The notes beneath the pieces are model-generated. The model ran no database searches and was not told the DNA's origin. It saw nothing but the letters and a program-made list of their open reading frames with translations. The position numbers and the translations under genes are program-made. From the IMG/VR virus record IMGVR_UViG_2563367158_000001: a DNA stretch of 35,389 bases, one strand, 5' to 3'. Within the stretch, counting starts at the first letter, position 1; each line of letters opens with the position of its first letter. Shown one piece after another: positions 4,044 through 15,381 of the stretch. This stretch comes from a virus (lineage: Duplodnaviria; Heunggongvirae; Uroviricota; Caudoviricetes).

Positions 4044-4200
4044 CGTTAGTTCTCCTTAATTGGTGCGCTGCACCGCACGATTTTTGGTTGCACGAATCCC
4101 TCGCCATAAGGCGATTAAAAGTTTTGGTTTCGTTTCAGTAAATGCCCCATCCAGAGGCACTTAGTGCAACGGGCGGCTGCCATCGCCAGTTATTTTCCCC

Positions 4201-4285
4201 ACTCAATTGAAAGCGCGTTCCGGAGGTTTTGGACTTAACGAACTGGCACTTAATGACAAGGGACAGAACGCGCTTTCAGTTGAGT
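4201..4285. repeat. inverted repeat: 20-bp arms (19/20 complementary) separated by 45 bp
   Basis: ACTCAATTGAAAGCGCGTTC (4201-4220) and GAACGCGCTTTCAGTTGAGT (4266-4285) are reverse complements with one mismatch; lies in a 420-bp non-coding gap. Confidence 0.6.
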
Positions 4286-4433
4286 AAAAAGGTGGCTATT
4301 CATCAGAACATTGTCGCCTTCATTAGGTTTATCTGTTGAAGATCTGTAAGCCGCTTATAAATAAGTAGATATAAGATATTAGGAAAAGAAGAAGGACGTT
4401 ATAGTTTTATTTGTGATGTGCAAAGTATATTTG

Positions 4434-4456
4434 AATAAAACCCGCCCAGCGGGTTC
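4434..4456 (-). terminator. rho-independent terminator downstream of the membrane-protein gene
   Basis: Minus-strand hairpin CCCGC-TGG-GCGGG followed by a U-tract (plus strand AATAAAACCCGCCCAGCGGGTT), 10 nt after the stop of 4466..5062. Confidence 0.6.
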
Positions 4457-4465
4457 TAAAGTGTT

Positions 4466-5062
4466 TTAATGATTGTCGTAATAATTAATTGGCTCATCAT
4501 TTTTTTGGTCTGGCATAGTTATGGACCACTTTATATTCTTTAGGCTGTTATGTTTTTTATTGACCTTAAGCTCTCTCTTTGCTTCAGAGATAATATCGTC
4601 TAGTAATACTTTTAATTTATCAAGTCTTGACTTGTGGGCATCTATCAACTCTATACTATCAAACTCCCATTGTATAAATAGATTTTCTTCATTTTCAATG
4701 AATGAACGGATTTTATCCCCACACTCTTCTGTTAAGAATAATGAAGATAGCTCACCTATTCTACTGAGTTTTTCAAGCTCATTAGAGAAAGATTTGCTAA
4801 GGATTTCATTTTCTTCTTTTGATTTGTAACTAAAGTAGGTTGGGAATTGTGAAGCGTGATGTAACTCATGTTTATACCAATAGTCAGCTGTGTTTTTTAG
4901 AAGATAAACACAGTCAACTAATTGCGTATACAAATCTATTCTTTTGTCCCACCATTTTTCTTTATAATAACGGCCGAGTGCATATCGCGCAGTTAAGTAA
5001 GCTGCGATTGAGCCTGTAACAAGTCCGATAATTACCTTTGATATAAGGTCATGCCAATCCAT
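4466..5062 (-). CDS. hypothetical single-pass membrane protein in an AT-rich insertion; candidate exclusion or abortive-infection factor
   Basis: 198-aa ORF; N-terminal hydrophobic helix (IIGLVTGSIAAYLTARYAL) then an aromatic- and Lys/Glu-rich domain; about 30% GC by eye; own terminator; AT-rich leader upstream. Confidence 0.7.
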   Translation of the reverse strand: MDWHDLISKVIIGLVTGSIAAYLTARYALGRYYKEKWWDKRIDLYTQLVDCVYLLKNTADYWYKHELHHASQFPTYFSYKSKEENEILSKSFSNELEKLSRIGELSSLFLTEECGDKIRSFIENEENLFIQWEFDSIELIDAHKSRLDKLKVLLDDIISEAKRELKVNKKHNSLKNIKWSITMPDQKNDEPINYYDNH

Positions 5063-5479
5063 TTTTATTTTTCCTACATTATGTTATATAATTGTTCATA
5101 TCATACAATTGTTGAGTATAGATGTCTCGTTATTCATCAACATTTACTCCTGTTAAATTAGGGGGAGTATGTATTAAAAATATTCATCTGGGTCGTCTAA
5201 ATATTTTTGATAAACTAATAGCAATAACACTATCAATATTGCCTGCCCTCACGTCGTTCTTGCTCTCGCGCGATTTTTAACTAAACACTAGCAGGATTTA
5301 TCATGGTGCTACGCTACATTTACTTGTAGGGAGCTAAACAGATCATTGACGCTGAAAATATTCAAATTGTTAAAGAGCGAAGCGTCCTATGGGCGTTTTG
5401 TTGCTAACGAATCATCTTGGACTTCATATGCCCCAGGCGGCTACTTCGTGGACGTCCTGCCTGTTTGTTGTTTCTCTTG

Positions 5480-8404: not shown

Positions 8405-8895
8405 TCATGAGTCTTTTGAATGAAGTTCAGAAATACATTGAAGCCCATCCGGGGTGTACTTCCGGAGACATTGCGGATGCTTTTGCAGGTTACTCACGGC
8501 AGCGCGTTCTGCAGTCAGCAAGCAAGTTACGTCAGAGTGGTCGTGTGGCTCACCGTTGTGAAGGGGATACACGCAGACATTTCCCGCGCCTGACTGAGAG
8601 AGCGCAGGAGGCGGAACCGCAACCAGTTCGTGAAACCAGACCTGTGCGCAATTTCTATGTCGGCACTAACGACCCGCGGGAGATTTTGTGCCTGACCCGC
8701 CAGGCGGAAGAACTGGAGTCCAGGGGCTTATACCGTCGTGCTGCAACGGTGTGGATGGCGGCATTCCGTGAAAGCCACTCCCAGCAAGAGCGAAACAATT
8801 TTCTGGCGCGTCGTGAGCGGTGCTTACGGAAAAGCAGCAAGCGCGCTGCATCGGGTGAAGAGTGGTATCTGTCAGGGAATTACGTGGGGGCTTAA
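8401..8895 (+). CDS. PerC-family transcriptional activator homologue
   Basis: 164-aa ORF with the motif AEELESRGLYRRAATVWMAA resembling the PerC/Pch signature. Confidence 0.55.
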   Translation: MIMSLLNEVQKYIEAHPGCTSGDIADAFAGYSRQRVLQSASKLRQSGRVAHRCEGDTRRHFPRLTERAQEAEPQPVRETRPVRNFYVGTNDPREILCLTRQAEELESRGLYRRAATVWMAAFRESHSQQERNNFLARRERCLRKSSKRAASGEEWYLSGNYVGA

Positions 8896-9548
8896 TGAGT
8901 AATAAATATTGCCAGGCGCTGGTGGAACTGCGGAACAAACCAGCTCATGAACTGAAGGAAGTGGGCGATCAGTGGCGCACGCCGGACAACATTTTCTGGG
9001 GAATTAACACCCTGTTTGGCCCGTTTGTTCTGGATCTGTTCACTGACGGTGATAACGCCAAATGTGCCGCGTATTACACGGCGGAAGACAACGCGCTGGC
9101 GCATGACTGGTCAGAACGTCTTGCGGAGCTTAAAGGTGCTGCCTTTGGTAATCCCCCATACAGCCGCGCCAGTCAGCATGAGGGGCAATACATCACCGGC
9201 ATGCGTTACATCATGAAGCATGCCAGTGCCATGCGTGATAAAGGCGGGCGCTATGTTTTCCTGATCAAAGCTGCCACCAGCGAAGTGTGGTGGCCGGAAA
9301 ATGCAGATCATATTGCTTTTATTCGCGGGCGTATTGGTTTTGAACTGCCTGTCTGGTTTATCCCGAAAGACGAGAAGCAGGTACCGACAGGCGCTTTCTT
9401 CGCTGGTGCTATTGCTGTTTTCGACAAGACCTGGAAGGGACCGGCAATCAGCTACATCGGGCGCGATGAACTTGAGGCATGTGGTGAGGCCTTTCTGGCG
9501 CAGGTTCGCCAGCAGGCGGAAAAACTGGTCAGGGAGATGGCGGCATGA
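8895..9548 (+). CDS. phage-type DNA N6-adenine methyltransferase
   Basis: 217-aa product from the internal Met (MSNKYCQALVEL...) with the NPPY catalytic motif (FGNPPYSRA); start overlaps the PerC-like stop (TAATG). Confidence 0.8.
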   Translation: MSNKYCQALVELRNKPAHELKEVGDQWRTPDNIFWGINTLFGPFVLDLFTDGDNAKCAAYYTAEDNALAHDWSERLAELKGAAFGNPPYSRASQHEGQYITGMRYIMKHASAMRDKGGRYVFLIKAATSEVWWPENADHIAFIRGRIGFELPVWFIPKDEKQVPTGAFFAGAIAVFDKTWKGPAISYIGRDELEACGEAFLAQVRQQAEKLVREMAA

Positions 9549-9871
9549 CGACGTTAACTCAATGCCAGCAGCAGGTGCTGGATATGCTGATTTCTTACCA
9601 GAAAGAGCGTGGCTTTCCGCCAACCAATCAGGAGGTGGCAACCATGCTGGGATATCGTTCAGTGAATGCAGCGGTGGAGCATCTTCGCGCACTGGAGAAA
9701 AAAGGCGTCATCACGATAAAGCGTGGTGTGGCCCGGGGGATAACGCTTCATACCGCGGTGAAGGACGACGACAGCGAGGCGGTCGGGATTATCCGCTCAC
9801 TGCTTGCCGGTGAGGAAAACGCCAGGCTGCGTGCAGCCCACTGGTTACATGAGAGGGGTCTGAAAGTATGA
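9545..9871 (+). CDS. stand-alone LexA-like N-terminal DNA-binding domain protein (no S24 peptidase domain)
   Basis: 108-aa ORF; residues about 5-70 align by eye with the LexA winged-HTH (GFPPT..E.A..LG.RS.NAA.EHL.AL..KGVI.I..G..RGI.L); the short C-terminal tail lacks Ser/Lys catalytic motifs. Confidence 0.65.
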   Translation: MTTLTQCQQQVLDMLISYQKERGFPPTNQEVATMLGYRSVNAAVEHLRALEKKGVITIKRGVARGITLHTAVKDDDSEAVGIIRSLLAGEENARLRAAHWLHERGLKV

Positions 9872-10257
9872 AGCTGATTCTGCCTTTCCCGCCCAGCGTG
9901 AACACGTACTGGCGACACCCCAACAAAGGGGCGTTTGCAGGTAAGAGCCTGATAAGCGCGGCGGGGCGCAAATTCCAGAGCGCGGCGTGTGCAGCAATAG
10001 TTGAGCAGTTACGTCGTCTGCCAAAACCAACGTCGGCACCTGCTTCAGTGGAGATCGTGTTGTTTCCTCCGGATAACCGGATCCGCGATCTGGACAACTA
10101 TAACAAGGCGCTGTTTGACGCCCTGACCCACGCGGGTGTGTGGGAAGACGACAGTCAGGTGAAAAGAATGCTGGTGGAGTGGGGACCGGTTATCCCGGAA
10201 GGGAAGGTCGAGATCACTATCAGTAAGTACGAGAAAACGGCGGGTGCAGCCGCCTGA
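9868..10257 (+). CDS. rusA: Holliday junction resolvase RusA
   Basis: 129-aa ORF with the RusA motif DLDNYNKALFDALTHAGVWEDDSQV. Confidence 0.85.
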   Translation: MKLILPFPPSVNTYWRHPNKGAFAGKSLISAAGRKFQSAACAAIVEQLRRLPKPTSAPASVEIVLFPPDNRIRDLDNYNKALFDALTHAGVWEDDSQVKRMLVEWGPVIPEGKVEITISKYEKTAGAAA

Positions 10258-10276
10258 TTAAGAGGAGAAACGAAGT

Positions 10277-11074
10277 ATGAATAATCTGATGGTCATTGAT
10301 GGTATTGAAGTTCGTCGTGATGCTTATGGGCGTTACAGCCTGAACGATCTGCACAGGGCTGCCGGTTCTCTGGATAAGCATAAGCCTGCATTCTGGCTCC
10401 GCAATGAGCAAACTGAGCGTTTAATAAGCGAGTTGCAGATTTGCAACTCGGTCAATATAGAGCCAGTTAACGTTATTCGTGGCGGAAATAACCAGGGGAC
10501 GTATGTCTGCAAAGAACTGGTGTATGCCTATGCAATGTGGATCAGCCCGTCATTCCATCTGAAGGTGATCCGTACTTTCGACATGGTAACCAGCGCACCG
10601 GAAAAATTATCCGGACAGGCTGCTGACAAGATGCAGGCTGGTGTGATTCTGCTGGACTTTATGCGCCGGGAGTTAAATCTGTCTAACTCTTCAGTGCTTG
10701 GAGCCTGTCAGAAACTTCAGGAGGCTGTTGGCTTACCGAATCTGGCACCGCGCTATGCCATTGATGCTCCTGCTGACGCGCCTGATGGCTCAAGCCGCCC
10801 CACGCTGTCACTGAGTGCACTGCTGAAGCAGTATGGTATCCGCCTTACGGCTAATCAGGCATATCACCAGATGGCGAAGCTGGGGATCGTCGAACAGCGC
10901 GAACGATACAGCCGTACAGCGATTAACAACATCAAAAAATTCTGGTCGCTGACAGCGAAAGGCTGCATGTTCGGCAAGAATATCACCAGTCCCGCAAATC
11001 CGCGTGAGACGCAGCCGCATTTCTTCGAATCCCGATTCCCTGAGCTGTTAAAGCTGCTCGATACCGTTCATTGA
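10277..11074 (+). CDS. KilA-N domain protein (anti-repressor-like)
   Basis: 265-aa ORF; N-terminal KilA-N-type region (IDGIEVRRDAYGRYSLNDLHRAAG...KPAFWLRNEQTERLI). Confidence 0.75.
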   Translation: MNNLMVIDGIEVRRDAYGRYSLNDLHRAAGSLDKHKPAFWLRNEQTERLISELQICNSVNIEPVNVIRGGNNQGTYVCKELVYAYAMWISPSFHLKVIRTFDMVTSAPEKLSGQAADKMQAGVILLDFMRRELNLSNSSVLGACQKLQEAVGLPNLAPRYAIDAPADAPDGSSRPTLSLSALLKQYGIRLTANQAYHQMAKLGIVEQRERYSRTAINNIKKFWSLTAKGCMFGKNITSPANPRETQPHFFESRFPELLKLLDTVH

Positions 11075-11075
11075 G

Positions 11076-12071
11076 GTGACCGTGAGAGCACTACTGACCC
11101 CTGAAATTGCCCCGCGTATGGGGATCGTATTGTTCAGACCAGGTTCAGAGCTGATGCCCCTGTTTATGCAGGGGCGTGTCCTGCTGGAGCCTGAGCCGGA
11201 ACGTTATTCATCTTTCGCCAGTGGTGCTGTTCCGGCGGCATCACAACCGCTGGCGGATGATCCTGACGTTCGGGCCGTGTTCCGCAATGAGGCAGTGATC
11301 CGTCGTGCTGGTGGCGTGGAATGTCTTGAAAGCTGGTTACTTCGTGAAAAAGGCTGCCAGTGGCCTCATTCCGACTGGCACAGCGAGAATATGACAACAA
11401 TGCGACACGCGCCGGGCGCAATCCGTCTGTGCTGGCACTGCGATAACCAGCTGCGCGATCAGTTCACGGAACGGCTGGAATCAATGGCAACGGATAACTG
11501 TGCCCGCTGGGTGTTGTCTGTTGTGCGTCGGGATCTCGGTTTTGATGATAGTCACGTTGTGACAATGCCGGAACTGTGCTGGTGGCTGATTCGTAATGAC
11601 CTGGCGGATGCCTTACCGGAAAGTGCAGCCCGTAAGGCACTGAGATTACCGAAGCCTGTTGTGCCGTCTGTCACCCGGGAAAGTGACCTTGTGCCTTCGG
11701 TTCCTGCCACCAGCATCATCCAGGATAAGGTGAAAAAGGTGCTGGCGCTGAAAGTGGATCCGGAGTCGCCGGAGTCTTTTATGTTACGCCCAAAACGTCG
11801 CCGCTGGGTTAATGAAAAGTACACACGCTGGGTTAAGACACAGCCGTGTGCATGTTGTGGAAAGCCTGCTGATGATCCCCACCACCTGATAGGCCACGGT
11901 CAGGGGGGAATGGGTACAAAAGCGCATGACCTCTTTGTGTTGCCTTTGTGCAGAAAGCATCACGACGAGCTGCATGCGGATACCGTGGCATTTGAAGAGA
12001 AGTATGGTTCCCAGCTGGAGCTGATATTTCGTTTTATCGATCGTGCGCTGGCAATAGGCGTACTGGCGTAA
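11076..12071 (+). CDS. DUF968-family protein (YdfU-like, HNH-like Cys/His motif)
   Basis: 331-aa ORF with GTG start; C-terminal CACCGKPADDPHHLIGHGQGGMGTKAHDLFVLPLCRKHHDELH. Confidence 0.6.
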   Translation: MTVRALLTPEIAPRMGIVLFRPGSELMPLFMQGRVLLEPEPERYSSFASGAVPAASQPLADDPDVRAVFRNEAVIRRAGGVECLESWLLREKGCQWPHSDWHSENMTTMRHAPGAIRLCWHCDNQLRDQFTERLESMATDNCARWVLSVVRRDLGFDDSHVVTMPELCWWLIRNDLADALPESAARKALRLPKPVVPSVTRESDLVPSVPATSIIQDKVKKVLALKVDPESPESFMLRPKRRRWVNEKYTRWVKTQPCACCGKPADDPHHLIGHGQGGMGTKAHDLFVLPLCRKHHDELHADTVAFEEKYGSQLELIFRFIDRALAIGVLA

Positions 12072-12084
12072 GTGGAGAACGAGC

Positions 12085-12837
12085 ATGAACCTTGAAGCCT
12101 TACCGAAATATTACTCCCCGAAATCTCCAAAACTGAGCGATGACGCACCGGCGACAGGCTCTGGTGGTTTAACGATTACGGATGTGATGGCTGCGCAGGG
12201 GATGGTGCAGTCGAAAGCACCGCTTGGGTTTGCCTTATTCCTGGCAAAAGTTGGTGTTCAGGATCCTCAGTTTGCGATTGAAGGTCTGCTCAATTACGCG
12301 ATGGCACTGGATAACCCGACATTGAATAAATTGAGTGAAGAAACCCGGCTACAGATCATTCCTTACCTTGTGAATTTTGCCTTTGCTGATTATTCCAGGT
12401 CTGCGGCAAGTAAGGCTCGCTGTGAGCATTGTGCTGGTACTGGATTTCATAATGTATTGCGCGAGGTGGTGAAACACTCCAGAAGCGGGGAATCTGTTAT
12501 CAAGGAAGAGTGGGTGAAGGAACTATGTCAGCATTGTCATGGTAAGGGAGAAGTCAGCACAGCGTGCAGAGGGTGTAAGGGTAAAGGTATTGTCCTGGAT
12601 GAAAAAAGGACCCGGCTTCATGGCACGCCTGTTTATAAGATTTGTGGGCGTTGCAATGGAAACCGGTTTAGCCGTTTACCAACTACACTGGCACGACGTC
12701 ATGTCCAGAAGCTGGTTCCAGACCTGACTGATTATCAGTGGTACAAAGGATATGCAGACGTAATTGATAAACTAGTAACAAAGTGCTGGCAGGAAGAAGC
12801 ATATGCTGAAACGCAATTGAGAAAGGTGACGAGATAA
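12085..12837 (+). CDS. late-gene antitermination protein Q
   Basis: 250-aa ORF with CxxC zinc-binding motifs (CEHCAGTG, CQHCHGKG, CRGCKGKG, CGRCNGN); directly upstream of a terminator and the lysis cassette. Confidence 0.7.
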   Translation: MNLEALPKYYSPKSPKLSDDAPATGSGGLTITDVMAAQGMVQSKAPLGFALFLAKVGVQDPQFAIEGLLNYAMALDNPTLNKLSEETRLQIIPYLVNFAFADYSRSAASKARCEHCAGTGFHNVLREVVKHSRSGESVIKEEWVKELCQHCHGKGEVSTACRGCKGKGIVLDEKRTRLHGTPVYKICGRCNGNRFSRLPTTLARRHVQKLVPDLTDYQWYKGYADVIDKLVTKCWQEEAYAETQLRKVTR

Positions 12838-12944
12838 GTGATTTTCGCCGAAGATGGCGACATGAAGCTTGCATTTTTCAAAAAATATGGATAAGATTTT
12901 CTCAACGATGGGCTTTGTATGTCTGCCGTTGATAATTTTCACGA

Positions 12945-12970
12945 ACCCGCTGTTGAGCGGGTTTTTATTT
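12945..12970 (+). terminator. tR'-like intrinsic terminator downstream of Q
   Basis: ACCCGC-TGTTGA-GCGGGT hairpin followed by TTTTTATTT. Confidence 0.6.
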
Positions 12971-13022
12971 ACTTGTACTGAAACACATTATATAACCTCA
13001 TATCAGTTAAAAAGGAGGTTGT

Positions 13023-13358
13023 ATGATTAATGCCGTTGAGTACAGATTACCGTTAGGAAATATCTCTCCAGAGAATCTTGACGCGTTGTCAGAGCTTATC
13101 GTTAAGCATTCCGATAAATTTAATAACTATGTACTTAGTTCTATTTCTGATGATGATATTCGATATTCTTACGATTACTACAATTTTGAAATCACAGAGA
13201 TAGATGAATATGGGTTTCACTTTATAGCACCATATAGCTATTATGAAGGATGCGTTGACAATAACTTCTCAGGAGAGGTTGAAGGTTATGCAGAATACGA
13301 AATCATTGATAATGAATTAGTCTTCTCTCTTGAGGAACTACCTTGGGATGTAAAATAA
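13023..13358 (+). CDS. hypothetical small acidic protein (AT-rich insertion between Q and holin)
   Basis: 111-aa ORF, very Asp/Glu/Tyr-rich; strong RBS AAGGAGGTTGTATG; about 33% GC by eye; followed by its own terminator. Confidence 0.6.
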   Translation: MINAVEYRLPLGNISPENLDALSELIVKHSDKFNNYVLSSISDDDIRYSYDYYNFEITEIDEYGFHFIAPYSYYEGCVDNNFSGEVEGYAEYEIIDNELVFSLEELPWDVK

Positions 13359-13366
13359 ATATCAAT

Positions 13367-13400
13367 AATAAAGGCCGTAACGAACGGCCTTTATTATTAT
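13367..13400 (+). terminator. rho-independent terminator
   Basis: Perfect 11-bp stem AATAAAGGCCG / CGGCCTTTATT with a 7-nt loop, followed by ATTAT. Confidence 0.65.
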
Positions 13401-13509
13401 AAAATCATCAATGCCTGATGAATTAGAATGTAATTTTCGAATTAATAATAAATCAACATATCATTTCACGCTCCGATTTTCTGTCGGAGGCGAAACTGCG
13501 GCTATTCAT

Positions 13510-13815
13510 ATGCACGAAAAAGAGAATCTTGCTGGAGCGTTCTGGCTCGTTTTGCTGATCATCGCAGGTTGGGGCGGTCTGGTCCGCTACCTGATAGATG
13601 TGAAGCAGAGTAAAGCAACGTGGAGTTGGATAAATGCTCTGGCTCAGATAGTGGTATCAGGATTCACCGGTGTTATTGGTGGCCTGATCAGCATCGAAAG
13701 TGGATTCAGTATTTACATGATTCTCGCGACAGCGGGGATTAGTGGTGCGATGGGTTCGGTTGCACTGACGTACTTCTGGGAACGACTGACAGGGGTGAAA
13801 AATGCAAAATCTTAA
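13510..13815 (+). CDS. holin (three predicted TM helices); the ORF also has an upstream in-frame ATG at 13411
   Basis: Three hydrophobic segments (AFWLVLLIIAGWGGLV, WINALAQIVVSGFTGVIGGLI, IYMILATAGISGAMGSVAL); stop overlaps the endolysin start; start choice uncertain (13411 or 13510). Confidence 0.6.
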   Translation: MHEKENLAGAFWLVLLIIAGWGGLVRYLIDVKQSKATWSWINALAQIVVSGFTGVIGGLISIESGFSIYMILATAGISGAMGSVALTYFWERLTGVKNAKS

Positions 13816-14278
13816 TCCTCAGCGTAAAGCTTTCCTCGATATGGTGGCATGGTCAGAAGGAACGGATAACGGGCGACAACCGACACGTAACCACGGTTAT
13901 GATATTATTGTCGGTGGTGAACTCTTCACTGATTACTCCGATCACCCTCGCAAACTTGTCACGCTAAACCCCAAACTCAAATCAACAGCTGCAGGCCGTT
14001 ATCAACTTCTTTCACGCTGGTGGGATGCTTACCGCAAGCAGCTTGGGCTGAAAGACTTCTCTCCAAAAAGCCAGGATGCTGTGGCATTGCAGCAGATTAA
14101 AGAGCGTGGCGCTTTACCGATGATTGATCGCGGCGATATTCGTCAGGCTATCGATCGTTGCAGCAATATCTGGGCTTCACTGCCGGGCGCTGGTTACGGT
14201 CAGTATGAACATAAAATCGGTGACCTGATTGCCCGATTCAAAGAGGCTGGCGGGGTGGTAAATGAAGTTGAGCTATAA
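13802..14278 (+). CDS. endolysin, lambda R-type lytic transglycosylase
   Basis: 158-aa ORF, near-collinear with lambda R as I recall it (NxQRKAFLDM.AWSEGTDNGRQ.TRNHGYD.IVGGELFTDYSDHPRKLVTLNPKLKST.AGRYQLL). Confidence 0.92.
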   Translation: MQNLNPQRKAFLDMVAWSEGTDNGRQPTRNHGYDIIVGGELFTDYSDHPRKLVTLNPKLKSTAAGRYQLLSRWWDAYRKQLGLKDFSPKSQDAVALQQIKERGALPMIDRGDIRQAIDRCSNIWASLPGAGYGQYEHKIGDLIARFKEAGGVVNEVEL

Positions 14279-14723
14279 GCTGGTTATCGCTGCATTCTTC
14301 GTTACTGTCATTGGTTCTTTTATCTGTTCAGCAAATTATTACCACAGCAAAGCCATCGAATACAAAAAGCAGCGTGATGAGAATGCTATGGCATTAGATT
14401 CGGCTATGGCGACTATCTCTGATATGCAGAAGCGTCAACGTGACGTAGCAGAACTTGACGCCAGATACACAAAGGAGCTTGCTGATGCTAACGCGACTAT
14501 CGAAAGTCTCCGTGCTGATGTTTCTTCTGGGCGTAAGCGCCTGCAAGTCGCCGCCACCTGTGCAAAATCAACGACCAGAGCCAGCGGCATGGGCGATGGA
14601 GAAAGCCCAGGACTTACAGCAGATGCTGAACTCAATTATTACCGTCTCCGAAGTGGAATCGACAGAATAACCGCACAGGTTAACTACCTGCAGGAGTACA
14701 TCAGGACGCAATGCCTTCGATGA
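14262..14723 (+). CDS. i-spanin Rz
   Basis: 153-aa ORF; N-terminal TM helix then coiled-coil resembling lambda Rz (YKAQRD-like, RQRDVAELDARYTKELADA). Confidence 0.85.
   Translation: MKLSYKLVIAAFFVTVIGSFICSANYYHSKAIEYKKQRDENAMALDSAMATISDMQKRQRDVAELDARYTKELADANATIESLRADVSSGRKRLQVAATCAKSTTRASGMGDGESPGLTADAELNYYRLRSGIDRITAQVNYLQEYIRTQCLR
14485..14670 (+). CDS. o-spanin Rz1 (embedded in Rz, +1 frame)
   Basis: 61-aa product from the internal Met of ORF 14455..14670: signal peptide with a Cys then a Pro-rich segment (CKSPPPVQNQRPEPAAW), typical of Rz1 lipoproteins. Confidence 0.7.
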   Translation: MLTRLSKVSVLMFLLGVSACKSPPPVQNQRPEPAAWAMEKAQDLQQMLNSIITVSEVESTE

Positions 14724-14990
14724 TAGCGATAATTTTACTCATCATCCTTCACATCAGGCCCTGTAGACAGAGTGGTGATTACTTCTGGAGTGGATTCAGA
14801 TTAAACATCTCATTGCTAATGTTTGAGGTTAAGCATCTGGCGCGCGGTAAGTGGTTGCGTTGAAATAAGAGCCAGTCCATTACAAATTTCATCAAGCGTT
14901 ATTGGTAAGGGTGATAATTATGAGATACCTCTTCACTAAGAGTAATCTTAAGGGTAATGTGTAACCTCACTTTTTAATACGGAGGTTGTA

Positions 14991-15215
14991 ATGTTAGAGA
15001 ATTATTTCCCTTCAGGAATAGGTGCTCAGCCTGTAACTCAAGCTCAAAAACAGAGGGTTATAGCTGTTCAAGCTGCCCTTGAATTAGTTAAGGCCTCACT
15101 TTCTTCTGCAGGTGGTCAGGCTACAAGTGCAAAATTTGAACAGGAATTAAAAGCAGCTATTGGCTTAATTGAACCATTAGCCGATGCCATTCAGAAAGCA
15201 ATCAGCAAAGAATAA
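14991..15215 (+). CDS. hypothetical small helical protein (AT-rich insertion after lysis genes)
   Basis: 74-aa ORF; strong RBS GGAGGTTGTAATG nearly identical to that of 13023..13358; Ala/Gln/Lys-rich; strong terminator about 100 nt downstream. Confidence 0.55.
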   Translation: MLENYFPSGIGAQPVTQAQKQRVIAVQAALELVKASLSSAGGQATSAKFEQELKAAIGLIEPLADAIQKAISKE

Positions 15216-15321
15216 ATAAACCACCTGCATTTTGTTTTATTTCCCAACTAACGGGTGTAATAATCTTAATGTTTCCCGTGGATAGATAAGACAATAAGTA
15301 TTCACCTTCAAGATATAAACG

Positions 15322-15347
15322 AGCCTCGCTAATGCGAGGCTTTTTTA
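15322..15347 (+). terminator. rho-independent terminator
   Basis: AGCCTCGC-TAAT-GCGAGGCT hairpin followed by TTTTT. Confidence 0.7.
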
Positions 15348-15381
15348 CGCATTGTAAGCGTGCACCAAAGAGGGGATATAA

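Follow-up and report, generated by a model that had tools for sequence, protein, structure and literature searches.

A family of small acidic proteins carried in a moron-like cassette between tR′ and the lysis genes of lambdoid prophages

We analysed a 35,389-nucleotide (nt) stretch of Caudoviricetes DNA (IMG/VR virus record IMGVR_UViG_2563367158_000001; "the window" throughout, with positions counted from its first letter), following up a first-pass annotation that had noticed a small acidic open reading frame (ORF) between the gene for the antiterminator Q and the holin gene. Here, we find that this ORF (13023–13358) is a genuine gene encoding 111 amino acids (aa). It is best explained as the E. 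coli member of an uncharacterised family of ~110-aa proteins, carried as an AT-rich moron cassette of ~0.5 kb in an SfV/e14-like lambdoid prophage, directly after the late terminator tR′ and ahead of the lysis genes. We further propose, more tentatively, that the cassette may be a classical moron insulated from late read-through by a fold-back RNA hairpin, so that the protein would appear in the lysogen or on entry and not in a burst on induction. From the sequence, this second proposal is plausible rather than firm.

The moron concept, of extra transcription units in the late regions of lambdoid phages, reportedly goes back to Hendrix and Juhala. Examples include bor and lom of lambda and gp15 of HK97. 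Like these, the cassette lies in a late operon between conserved neighbours, is absent from close relatives, deviates in composition (34% versus 51% GC), and comes with a terminator of its own and a leader resembling a promoter. Of the four features that define a moron, three are present, namely insertion between conserved neighbours, deviant composition and an own terminator; for the fourth, an own promoter active in the repressed prophage, the leader motif described below is a candidate. The cassette differs from these morons in that it encodes no outer- or inner-membrane protein but a cytoplasmic, acidic one from an unnamed family, and in that it adds a predicted hairpin closing the ribosome site in read-through RNA.

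The gene and its family

The ORF runs from ATG to TAA, with the Shine-Dalgarno sequence AAGGAGG at 13012–13018, 5 bases 5′ of the ATG. By our own arithmetic, a 111-codon open frame has a chance probability of ~2e-4 in DNA of 33% GC. We regard it as a true gene because pairwise ratios of nonsynonymous to synonymous change (dN/dS) within the family are 0.06–0.28 (synonymous sites being saturated between E. coli and Salmonella) and because there are about 60 distinct homologues. Lack of coding conservation in related phages had been named beforehand as grounds for giving up the gene; the frame is in fact conserved as coding, at these same ratios. The product has 24 Asp and Glu versus 5 Lys and Arg, a net charge of −19, an isoelectric point (pI) of 4.05 and 12 Tyr (10.8%). 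It contains no hydrophobic segment (grand average of hydropathy −0.35) and is a cytoplasmic protein, with neither signal peptide nor membrane segment. The gene itself is 33.9% GC (30% at third codon positions), and segment 12967–13410 is 32.7% GC, as compared to 51.4% for the whole window. All the basic features of the initial description, an acidic 111-aa ORF with a strong ribosome-binding site and its own terminator (a stem of up to 15 bp) in an AT-rich patch, are therefore borne out.

Relatives are sparse by simple search. A word-indexed search covering 5.8 billion proteins returned only one Salmonella (72%) and one Citrobacter (69%) protein, and an exhaustive HMMER profile search of 1.84 billion cluster representatives gave 26 matches at E ≤ 0.001. 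Re-searching with profiles and adding IMG/VR enlarges the family to the ~60 sequences mentioned above, of 106–118 aa, all confined to the Enterobacterales (Escherichia, Shigella, Salmonella, Citrobacter, Enterobacter, Duffyella, Erwinia and other Erwiniaceae). Conservation is complete or nearly complete at F33, D45, R47, Y48, F55, G76, C77, D79, Y92, D/E104, E105 and W108; these residues lie within the motifs D-x-R-Y, [YF][YF]-x-G-C-x-D-x-N and L-D-E-T-x-W. HMMER matches to a 2661-aa and a 435-aa protein are repeat artefacts. IraM, which is also small and which an Stx2k phage encodes in this slot, was considered as a possible relative and rejected (hhalign probability 0.3%).

The protein had been described at the outset as both very acidic and Tyr-rich. 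Acidity proves to be a family trait, seen in every member (pI 4.05–4.9, net charge −8 to −21), and nine alignment columns are at least 70% Asp/Glu. Tyr-richness, on the other hand, is particular to the E. coli/Salmonella branch, with Tyr counts varying from 3 to 12 across the family. Family members have a GC fraction of 0.33–0.46, against about 0.5 for their surroundings in relatives.

The family is catalogued (RefSeq, UniProt J7QCH0, PHROG 13663), and as far as the searchable literature shows it has never been characterised; our literature search found no paper on it. PHROG 13663 ("unknown function") is the match for all 25 aligned members scanned, none of which matched an annotated PHROG family, and public-source names for six family clusters are uniformly "hypothetical protein". 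The absence of a recognisable motif, remarked on earlier, holds for Pfam, NCBIfam, PADLOC and the sequences of the PDB, with either the single protein or profiles as query. No member was found among 50,697 sequenced phage isolates (including by tblastn with two members), nor in 72,556 plasmids apart from one 37.7-kb circular copy of the same prophage. That copy (L002; NZ_CP081716.1, E. coli CX04 "plasmid unnamed3", 37,667 bp circular) extends from ymfL via Q, the acidic ORF and the lysis genes to the terminase and portal genes. It has many frameshifted genes, and CX04 also holds a chromosomal copy of the prophage. It has the look of an excised or replicating phage genome that was assembled as a plasmid, and it suggests that the prophage remains active. 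The cassette is carried by about 2.4% of complete E. coli genomes (131/5426), always at ≥99% identity and with the same junctions.

Predicted structure

AlphaFold models of the 111-aa protein improve from a predicted local distance difference test (pLDDT) score of 74 with four sequences to 86, with a predicted template modelling score of 0.78, when a 25-sequence alignment is supplied. The model comprises strand 3–10, helices 19–28 and 30–41, and strands 48–50, 56–60, 64–73, 82–95 and 98–105; confidence is low in the last five residues, among them the invariant W108. The predicted fold is one compact domain, in which two helices pack against a six-stranded antiparallel sheet in a cystatin/NTF2-like roll. 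To judge from the model, the likeness to proteins of this fold (SCOP fold d.17: cystatins, latexin, SnoaL, VirB8) is one of shape only. A Foldseek search of the model against BFVD gave no match at E ≤ 0.001.

A cargo slot behind Q-pR′-tR′

Homology defines the edges of the cassette. In megablast searches against phage genomes, 12800–12966 is 84–90% identical to SfV, mEp460, 15 Stx2c-converting phages and others. All alignments over the end of Q, pR′ and tR′ stop by 12966, most of them at exactly this position. On the right side, homology to the holin modules of PhiR47_2 and Klebsiella phages starts at 13473–13478. From these two breaks in homology, we place the insertion at 12967–~13472, or ~506 bp; the end coordinate of 13400 in the first-pass annotation takes in the terminator, and the whole cassette is longer. 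In PhiR47_2, which has the same holin, nothing lies between Q and the holin gene and the slot is empty.

The slot is evidently a general one, and the suggestion that it corresponds to the position of stx in Stx phages turns out to be correct. Behind the same Q-pR′-tR′, phiSTEC1575-Stx2k has several small genes, three tRNAs and stx2AB, while SfV has orf47, a DNA methyltransferase gene and a second terminator, followed by S. Other E. coli prophages carry in this place the SfV pair, a gene for a 141-aa hypothetical protein, or cspF/cspB/ynfU. The stx2AB and SfV-type cargo is inserted at exactly this point (90% identity up to 12966); there is no relation in sequence or function between Shiga toxin and the 111-aa protein. 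The 127-nt pR′-tR′ unit is present in 1022/5426 complete E. coli genomes, and the Q of the window is of the PF03589 family, not the lambda Q family.

Family members keep this position across genera. The gene lies between Q and holin in Salmonella (6 places shown), Citrobacter (6), Enterobacter, Duffyella and an Erwiniaceae bacterium. Among 26 IMG/VR loci, a Q homologue lies 5′ in 24, a holin or endolysin gene 3′ in 23, and an SfV-type methyltransferase gene 3′ in the remaining 3. The flanking genes are themselves diverse, with four types of Q (PF03589; 192-aa PF06576/PF06530; 121-aa PF06530; 204-aa without Pfam match), four of holin (LydA; holin_8 plus holin_3_7; holin_2; lambda S-like) and three of endolysin. 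One caveat is that positional fidelity alone does not prove a lysis-tied function, because lambdoid mosaics normally preserve map position. There are also exceptions, consisting of a decayed prophage in Erwinia tracheiphila and two solitary chromosomal copies with no phage remnant within 5–6 kb. The Erwinia-type pair L021/L025 has a dN/dS of 0.11, indicative of continuing purifying selection.

In eight contexts the SfV orf47 and methyltransferase pair is found in the slot together with the family gene. At loci L019/L020, L029, L045, L046, L049, L050 and L054, for example, the slot contains the family gene, an orf47-like small gene and an N6/N4 DNA methyltransferase gene, in variable order. This co-occurrence implies that the slot can hold several independent cassettes together.

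The tR′ hairpin also precedes the Salmonella and Citrobacter orthologues, there behind a different Q family; tR′ is the left edge of the cassette and probably served as the recombination joint. A Duffyella gerundensis prophage (L024, 5840–5950) has two tandem terminator hairpins 5′ of the family gene, the resident tR′ and the cassette's own, each with TTTTT(G)CATTTC behind it; a single hairpin fills both roles in the window and in Salmonella. The tandem arrangement suggests that cassettes are exchanged by recombination at terminator sequences. At the other end, directly after the stop codon, the window has a hairpin with the GC core GGCCGT/ACGGCC (13373–13378/13384–13389), extended by A/T pairs to 15 bp (13364–13398; −25.4 kcal/mol), and a T-rich tail that follows and overlaps it. 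A hairpin and T-run are found 3′ of the gene in the window, L003, L009, L017, L024 and L026. At L019, where the methyltransferase gene comes next, there is no such hairpin.

A constrained leader with a promoter-like motif and a predicted fold-back hairpin

We find that the non-coding leader of the cassette is more constrained than the synonymous sites of the gene. The 85 nt upstream of the ATG diverge 2–6 times less, with p-distances of 0.08–0.31 versus synonymous distances (pS) of 0.47–0.88 in the same pairs. Window and Salmonella (L003), for instance, differ by 0.29 upstream and 0.80 at synonymous sites; the corresponding values are 0.08 and 0.47 for L017/L038, and 0.27 and 0.64 for L026/L048.

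Within the leader, a promoter-like element is conserved between the window, Salmonella and Citrobacter. More generally, 22 of the 31 unique leaders contain a −35-like hexamer, exactly 15 nt, and a hexamer TAnnnT, the motif ending 26–33 nt 5′ of the ATG. The first hexamer is TTGACA, CTGACA or TTGGCA in most branches and TTTACT/TTTACA in that of the window; the second is TATGCT, TAAGAT, TAATAT, TAGGAT, TAGCAT or TATGAT, with TATATA in the window's branch. Substitutions in the leader leave the T, the A and the final T of the −10 untouched. In most members, the motif is preceded by an A-rich tract and a direct repeat of ATTTCTGA. At L017, L019, L024, L026 and L030–L050, the two copies of (C)ATTTCTGA are 19–20 nt apart, with the A-rich tract between them, about 60–95 nt 5′ of the gene, and the second copy overlaps the −35-like TTGACA/CTGACA. 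The repeat, which is absent from the window's branch, travels with the cassette, since it is conserved across phages of different Q families. It could be the binding site of a regulator, or an UP-element plus −35; readings as a LexA box, Pho box or OmpR-type site fit poorly by eye. A scan of IMG/VR with a 17-nt leader motif yielded mostly chance matches.

The second feature of the leader is a predicted hairpin, the 5′ arm of which starts immediately 3′ of the −10-like hexamer and the 3′ arm of which is the Shine-Dalgarno sequence, such that pairing covers this sequence and the first two bases of the AUG. Its folding free energy is −10.4 kcal/mol (z-score −4.0), and 0/200 shuffles are equally stable. 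Folding predictions suggest that RNA origin matters. In read-through RNA from pR′ (12904–13045), the stem grows to 13 bp and covers both the Shine-Dalgarno and the AUG, whereas in RNA beginning at 13000 the hairpin is gone and the start region is unstructured. At 21 of 22 loci, the Shine-Dalgarno-AUG zone is predicted to be more accessible in the short than in the long RNA (mean unpaired about 0.62 vs about 0.35). Most prophage members have an equivalent hairpin with other, covarying arms, such as AUCCAC/GUGGAU, UUCACC/GGUGAA or CAUCAC/GUGAU. MAFFT alignment of the leaders put the arms out of register, and hairpins were hence compared by per-sequence folding with controls.

This geometry recalls fold-back inhibition of transposase translation in IS10/Tn10, reportedly described by Davis, Simons and Kleckner in 1985. 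As in IS10, the 5′ arm of the predicted hairpin would lie at or 5′ of the element's own −10/start, and only externally initiated transcripts would be closed. The cassette differs in being no transposon, and its geometry is purely in silico, with a moderate background control.

Weighing the explanations

Based on these observations, we propose that the cassette, bracketed by two terminators, may act as a unit transcribed autonomously. Initiation at a weak and non-canonical promoter would fall within or just 3′ of the 5′ arm of the hairpin, leaving the ribosome-binding site open in the cassette's own transcripts, while Q-modified late RNA reading through from pR′ would fold the Shine-Dalgarno and AUG into a stem of 10–13 bp. 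In the lysogen, the post-gene terminator would stop cassette transcription before it reached the holin gene. Q-modified polymerase has no use for a terminator there; a cassette promoter lying before the holin gene makes one essential. On this view, synthesis of the product would occur in the lysogen or from the moment of entry, and not as an induction burst. In line with this, the solitary, phage-free copies under purifying selection imply a use outside the lytic cycle. As for activity, the protein may be a stoichiometric binder that neutralises a basic or nucleic-acid-binding partner, for example a host factor (of defence or otherwise), a toxin entering the cell or a protein that a superinfecting phage brings. 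This is the simplest reading because the protein is small, single-domain, strongly acidic and cytoplasmic, with no similarity to catalytic families. A stoichiometric inhibitor of a host, phage or toxin target is our best guess, from weak inference, and a role as enzyme, lysis component or virion component is unlikely. It would go further still, to a claim we think unlikely, to see here a new class of prophage-encoded inhibitor with a cystatin-like fold (anti-defence, anti-phage or anti-toxin, with a conserved target in host or competitor), the fold-back hairpin limiting translation to transcripts of its own promoter, shutting it off in Q-driven late RNA and serving generally to insulate cargo that precedes lysis genes.

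Several observations weigh against the insulated, autonomous unit. A scan for standard promoters (16–18 nt spacer) calls none 5′ of the gene in the window, L003, L017 or L019, which is why the cassette promoter is something that we infer; it appears weakest in the window's own branch. The proposed spacer is 15 bp, and the −10 of the window's branch lacks the final T. In addition, the motif is missing from the four most divergent prophage members (L051–L054) and from the solitary copies. Pairing of the Shine-Dalgarno in 36-nt leaders is also frequent for other ORFs of the same loci (39% vs 62%; Mann-Whitney p 0.001, from related, non-independent sequences), and because such pairing is common in background leaders the hairpin evidence is only moderate. 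Finally, only size, charge and the lack of similarity to catalytic families point to a binder, and the invariant D-x-R-Y and G-C-x-D-x-N motifs could instead belong to an active site or to a pocket for a ligand.

The main rival, of low probability, is that the gene is Q-dependent late cargo, without a promoter of its own, whose product would be the first late protein made after read-through of tR′ and would counter host abortive-infection or defence systems triggered by late proteins or lysis, with the hairpin doing no more than adjusting the dose. The gene does lie 3′ of a lambda-type pR′/pause/tR′ unit, its place as first gene of the late operon is conserved in >35 contexts, and in eight of these its neighbours in the slot include a phage DNA methyltransferase gene, a self-protection function. 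The absence of a canonical promoter keeps this explanation alive, as does the precedent of AtiEcA of phi80, a Q-controlled counter-defence gene in a lambdoid late operon (PMC11364771). AtiEcA acts against the prophage's own Tai system (PMC11364771), and it resembles the present gene in being a small accessory protein encoded within a lambdoid late operon, where the logic of expression matters for self-immunity (PMC11364771). It differs in that its slot is 5′ of the packaging genes, not between Q and S, and the present ORF has no cognate defence gene adjacent. What makes the late-cargo explanation doubtful is that read-through RNA is predicted to bury the Shine-Dalgarno and AUG in the 13-bp stem, that the conserved post-gene terminator has no role for Q-modified polymerase, that the leader motif is conserved with promoter-like patterns of substitution, and that solitary chromosomal copies persist under selection without any phage. 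Whereas stx needs Q read-through for high expression, the leader structure of the cassette argues against efficient translation of read-through RNA, and the strong expression on induction that the first-pass annotation had expected is put in question by the same predicted stem. A tie to lysis itself, in the form of an antiholin-like protein or endolysin regulator made with the lysis cassette to set its timing, is far less credible. The gene is directly 5′ of the holin gene in nearly all prophage contexts; against this, the neighbouring genes code for holins of four unrelated families and endolysins of three, no membrane segment is seen in the protein, a terminator parts the gene from the holin gene, the methyltransferase gene lies between gene and holin or precedes the gene in eight contexts, and there are copies without any lysis genes.

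The remaining alternatives concern the activity of the protein. It had been suggested that the composition would suit a DNA-mimic anti-restriction protein of the Ocr/ArdA kind, in which an acidic surface imitates B-DNA and titrates type I restriction enzymes or other DNA-binding defence proteins. With Ocr (T7 gp0.3) and ArdA the protein shares its small size, its strong acidity and its origin in a mobile element, and this acidity (net −19, pI 4.05) is conserved in the family, as the nine Asp/Glu columns show; the slot also holds a DNA methyltransferase gene in relatives. However, Ocr and ArdA are helical dimers with the shape of B-DNA, which the predicted alpha+beta roll does not resemble, and the model has no structural match. 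Moreover, the gene lies behind tR′ in the late region, neither in an early or leading region nor on plasmids, a point that a cassette promoter, if real, would soften. We therefore find little support for a DNA mimic and consider it very improbable. There is a somewhat better, still low, probability that the protein is an orphan immunity (antitoxin-like) protein made in the lysogen, which would bind an incoming basic nuclease or effector delivered as a bacteriocin or by contact-dependent inhibition or type VI secretion. No toxin gene is adjacent in any context examined, a test that orphan immunity genes would escape. The colicin- and pyocin-like genes of two related prophages are kilobases away, one with its own immunity gene, and the protein matches no described Pfam immunity family. 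Similarly improbable is a small-molecule binder or enzyme, in which the cone-shaped NTF2-like roll and the invariant Asp-x-Arg-Tyr and Gly-Cys-x-Asp-x-Asn motifs would form a pocket able to sequester a metabolite, for instance a nucleotide of defence signalling, or to modify it. With regard to the anti-CRISPR locus feature of an adjacent aca-type helix-turn-helix gene, none is present; what follows is the terminator and then the holin or methyltransferase gene.

Neighbouring genes and other features

Coordinates are collected in Table 1. The roles of pR′ and of the pause elements behind it are established for lambda. The window reads TTGCAT-17 nt-TAAGAT-tttctc-AACGATGGG, in the same register as lambda pR′ (NC_001416; TTGACT-17 nt-TAAATT-tgactc-AACGATGGG), and by this sequence comparison it has a lambda-type late promoter with the pause element in register. 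SfV, in which the pR′ unit is identical, shares the pR′-tR′ unit of the window, as do the 1022 E. coli genomes noted above. The tR′ of the window is only ~40 nt past the pause element, which would give a terminated leader RNA of ~65 nt, versus the 194-nt 6S RNA of lambda. An Rfam scan of 12700–13600 returned nothing at gathering score.

Table 1. Features of the Q-to-Rz region, in window coordinates
Feature	Position	Strand	Details and evidence
Antiterminator Q, 250 aa, left neighbour of slot	12085–12837	+	PF03589 Antiterm 3.8e-54; phrog_127 4.7e-109; RefSeq "antitermination protein"
Predicted pR′-type late promoter	12869–12912	+	−35 TTGCAT 12869–12874, 17-nt spacer, −10 TAAGAT 12892–12897
Putative sigma70 pause-inducing element AACGAT-GGG	12904–12912	+	Six nt past −10; inferred start about 12904
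tR′-type intrinsic terminator	12943–12970	+	GAACCCGC-tgtt-GCGGGTTT and T-run; terminator scan (hairpin 12943–12964)
Inserted AT-rich cassette, ~506 bp, ~33% GC	12967–~13472	+	Edges from homology breaks and composition
Promoter-like element	12968–12994	+	TTTACT 12968–12973, 15 nt, TATATA 12989–12994; alternative 17 nt then TATAAC
Predicted start-sequestering hairpin	12990–13024	+	AUAUAACCUC 12990–12999 pairs with GAGGUUGUAU 13015–13024; covers Shine-Dalgarno and first two AUG bases
Acidic protein gene, 111 aa	13023–13358	+	WP_000606308.1; UniProt J7QCH0; PHROG 13663
Two-way intrinsic-terminator-like hairpin	13363–13399	.	Directly 3′ of stop codon
Holin, LydA/holin superfamily III type, right neighbour	13510–13815	+	PF16083 1.5e-21; phrog_785; RefSeq start 13510
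Endolysin	13802–14278	+	phrog_90 8.5e-63
Rz spanin	14262–14723	+	PF03245 9e-38

The holin frame is open for 33 further codons in the 5′ direction (13411–13509), into the AT-rich end of the cassette, and automatic calls could thereby give a 134-aa holin. This extension is probably untranslated, because holin profiles leave it uncovered and it has no ribosome site, and the start at 13411 is best regarded as an unsupported in-frame extension. Genes for a KilA-N protein and a DUF968/HNH protein lie 5′ of Q, and HNH, terminase, head and tail genes follow Rz. RefSeq shows the same gene order in E. coli ATCC 11775 and ECONIH4, with the ORF annotated as a "hypothetical protein" (WP_000606308.1); in both, the host element is an SfV/e14-like prophage (ymfL to ymfR to ymfQ), and the cassette of ATCC 11775 (DSM 30083) is identical to that of the window. 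The ECONIH4 prophage, otherwise identical, has an ISSpu7-family transposase gene in the early-left region (L055, 8499–10109), beside a pseudogenised second integrase gene.

A second AT-rich patch (14724–15380; 39–42% GC) lies between Rz and the HNH/terminase genes and contains a 74-aa ORF at 14991–15215 (phrog_5901, unknown function). In ATCC 11775, the matching interval also has a 146-aa gene on the opposite strand. This position, upstream of the packaging module, is where phi80 has Tai-type defence genes (PMC11364771). Bacteriocin genes are seen in some related prophages (L009–L014, from Citrobacter, at 4181–5275 on the minus strand of L009; and L026, at 8598–11160). The early region holds one of these, colicin-like and pore-forming; the second, a Pyocin_S/colicin-DNase gene, lies just past the lysis cassette together with its immunity gene.

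Implications

Uncharacterised morons are common, and a cassette of this kind is not in itself unexpected. Its location is of greater interest, since the slot between Q-tR′ and holin holds the most consequential cargo of lambdoid prophages, including Shiga toxin, methyltransferases and cold-shock genes. The family keeps this slot across Escherichia, Salmonella, Citrobacter, Enterobacter and the Erwiniaceae despite swaps of Q, holin and endolysin, which makes it a credible lead for a new phage-host interaction factor. If the proposed insulation by terminators and hairpin holds, it would explain how lethal lysis genes can safely be preceded by a cargo gene that is expressed constitutively.

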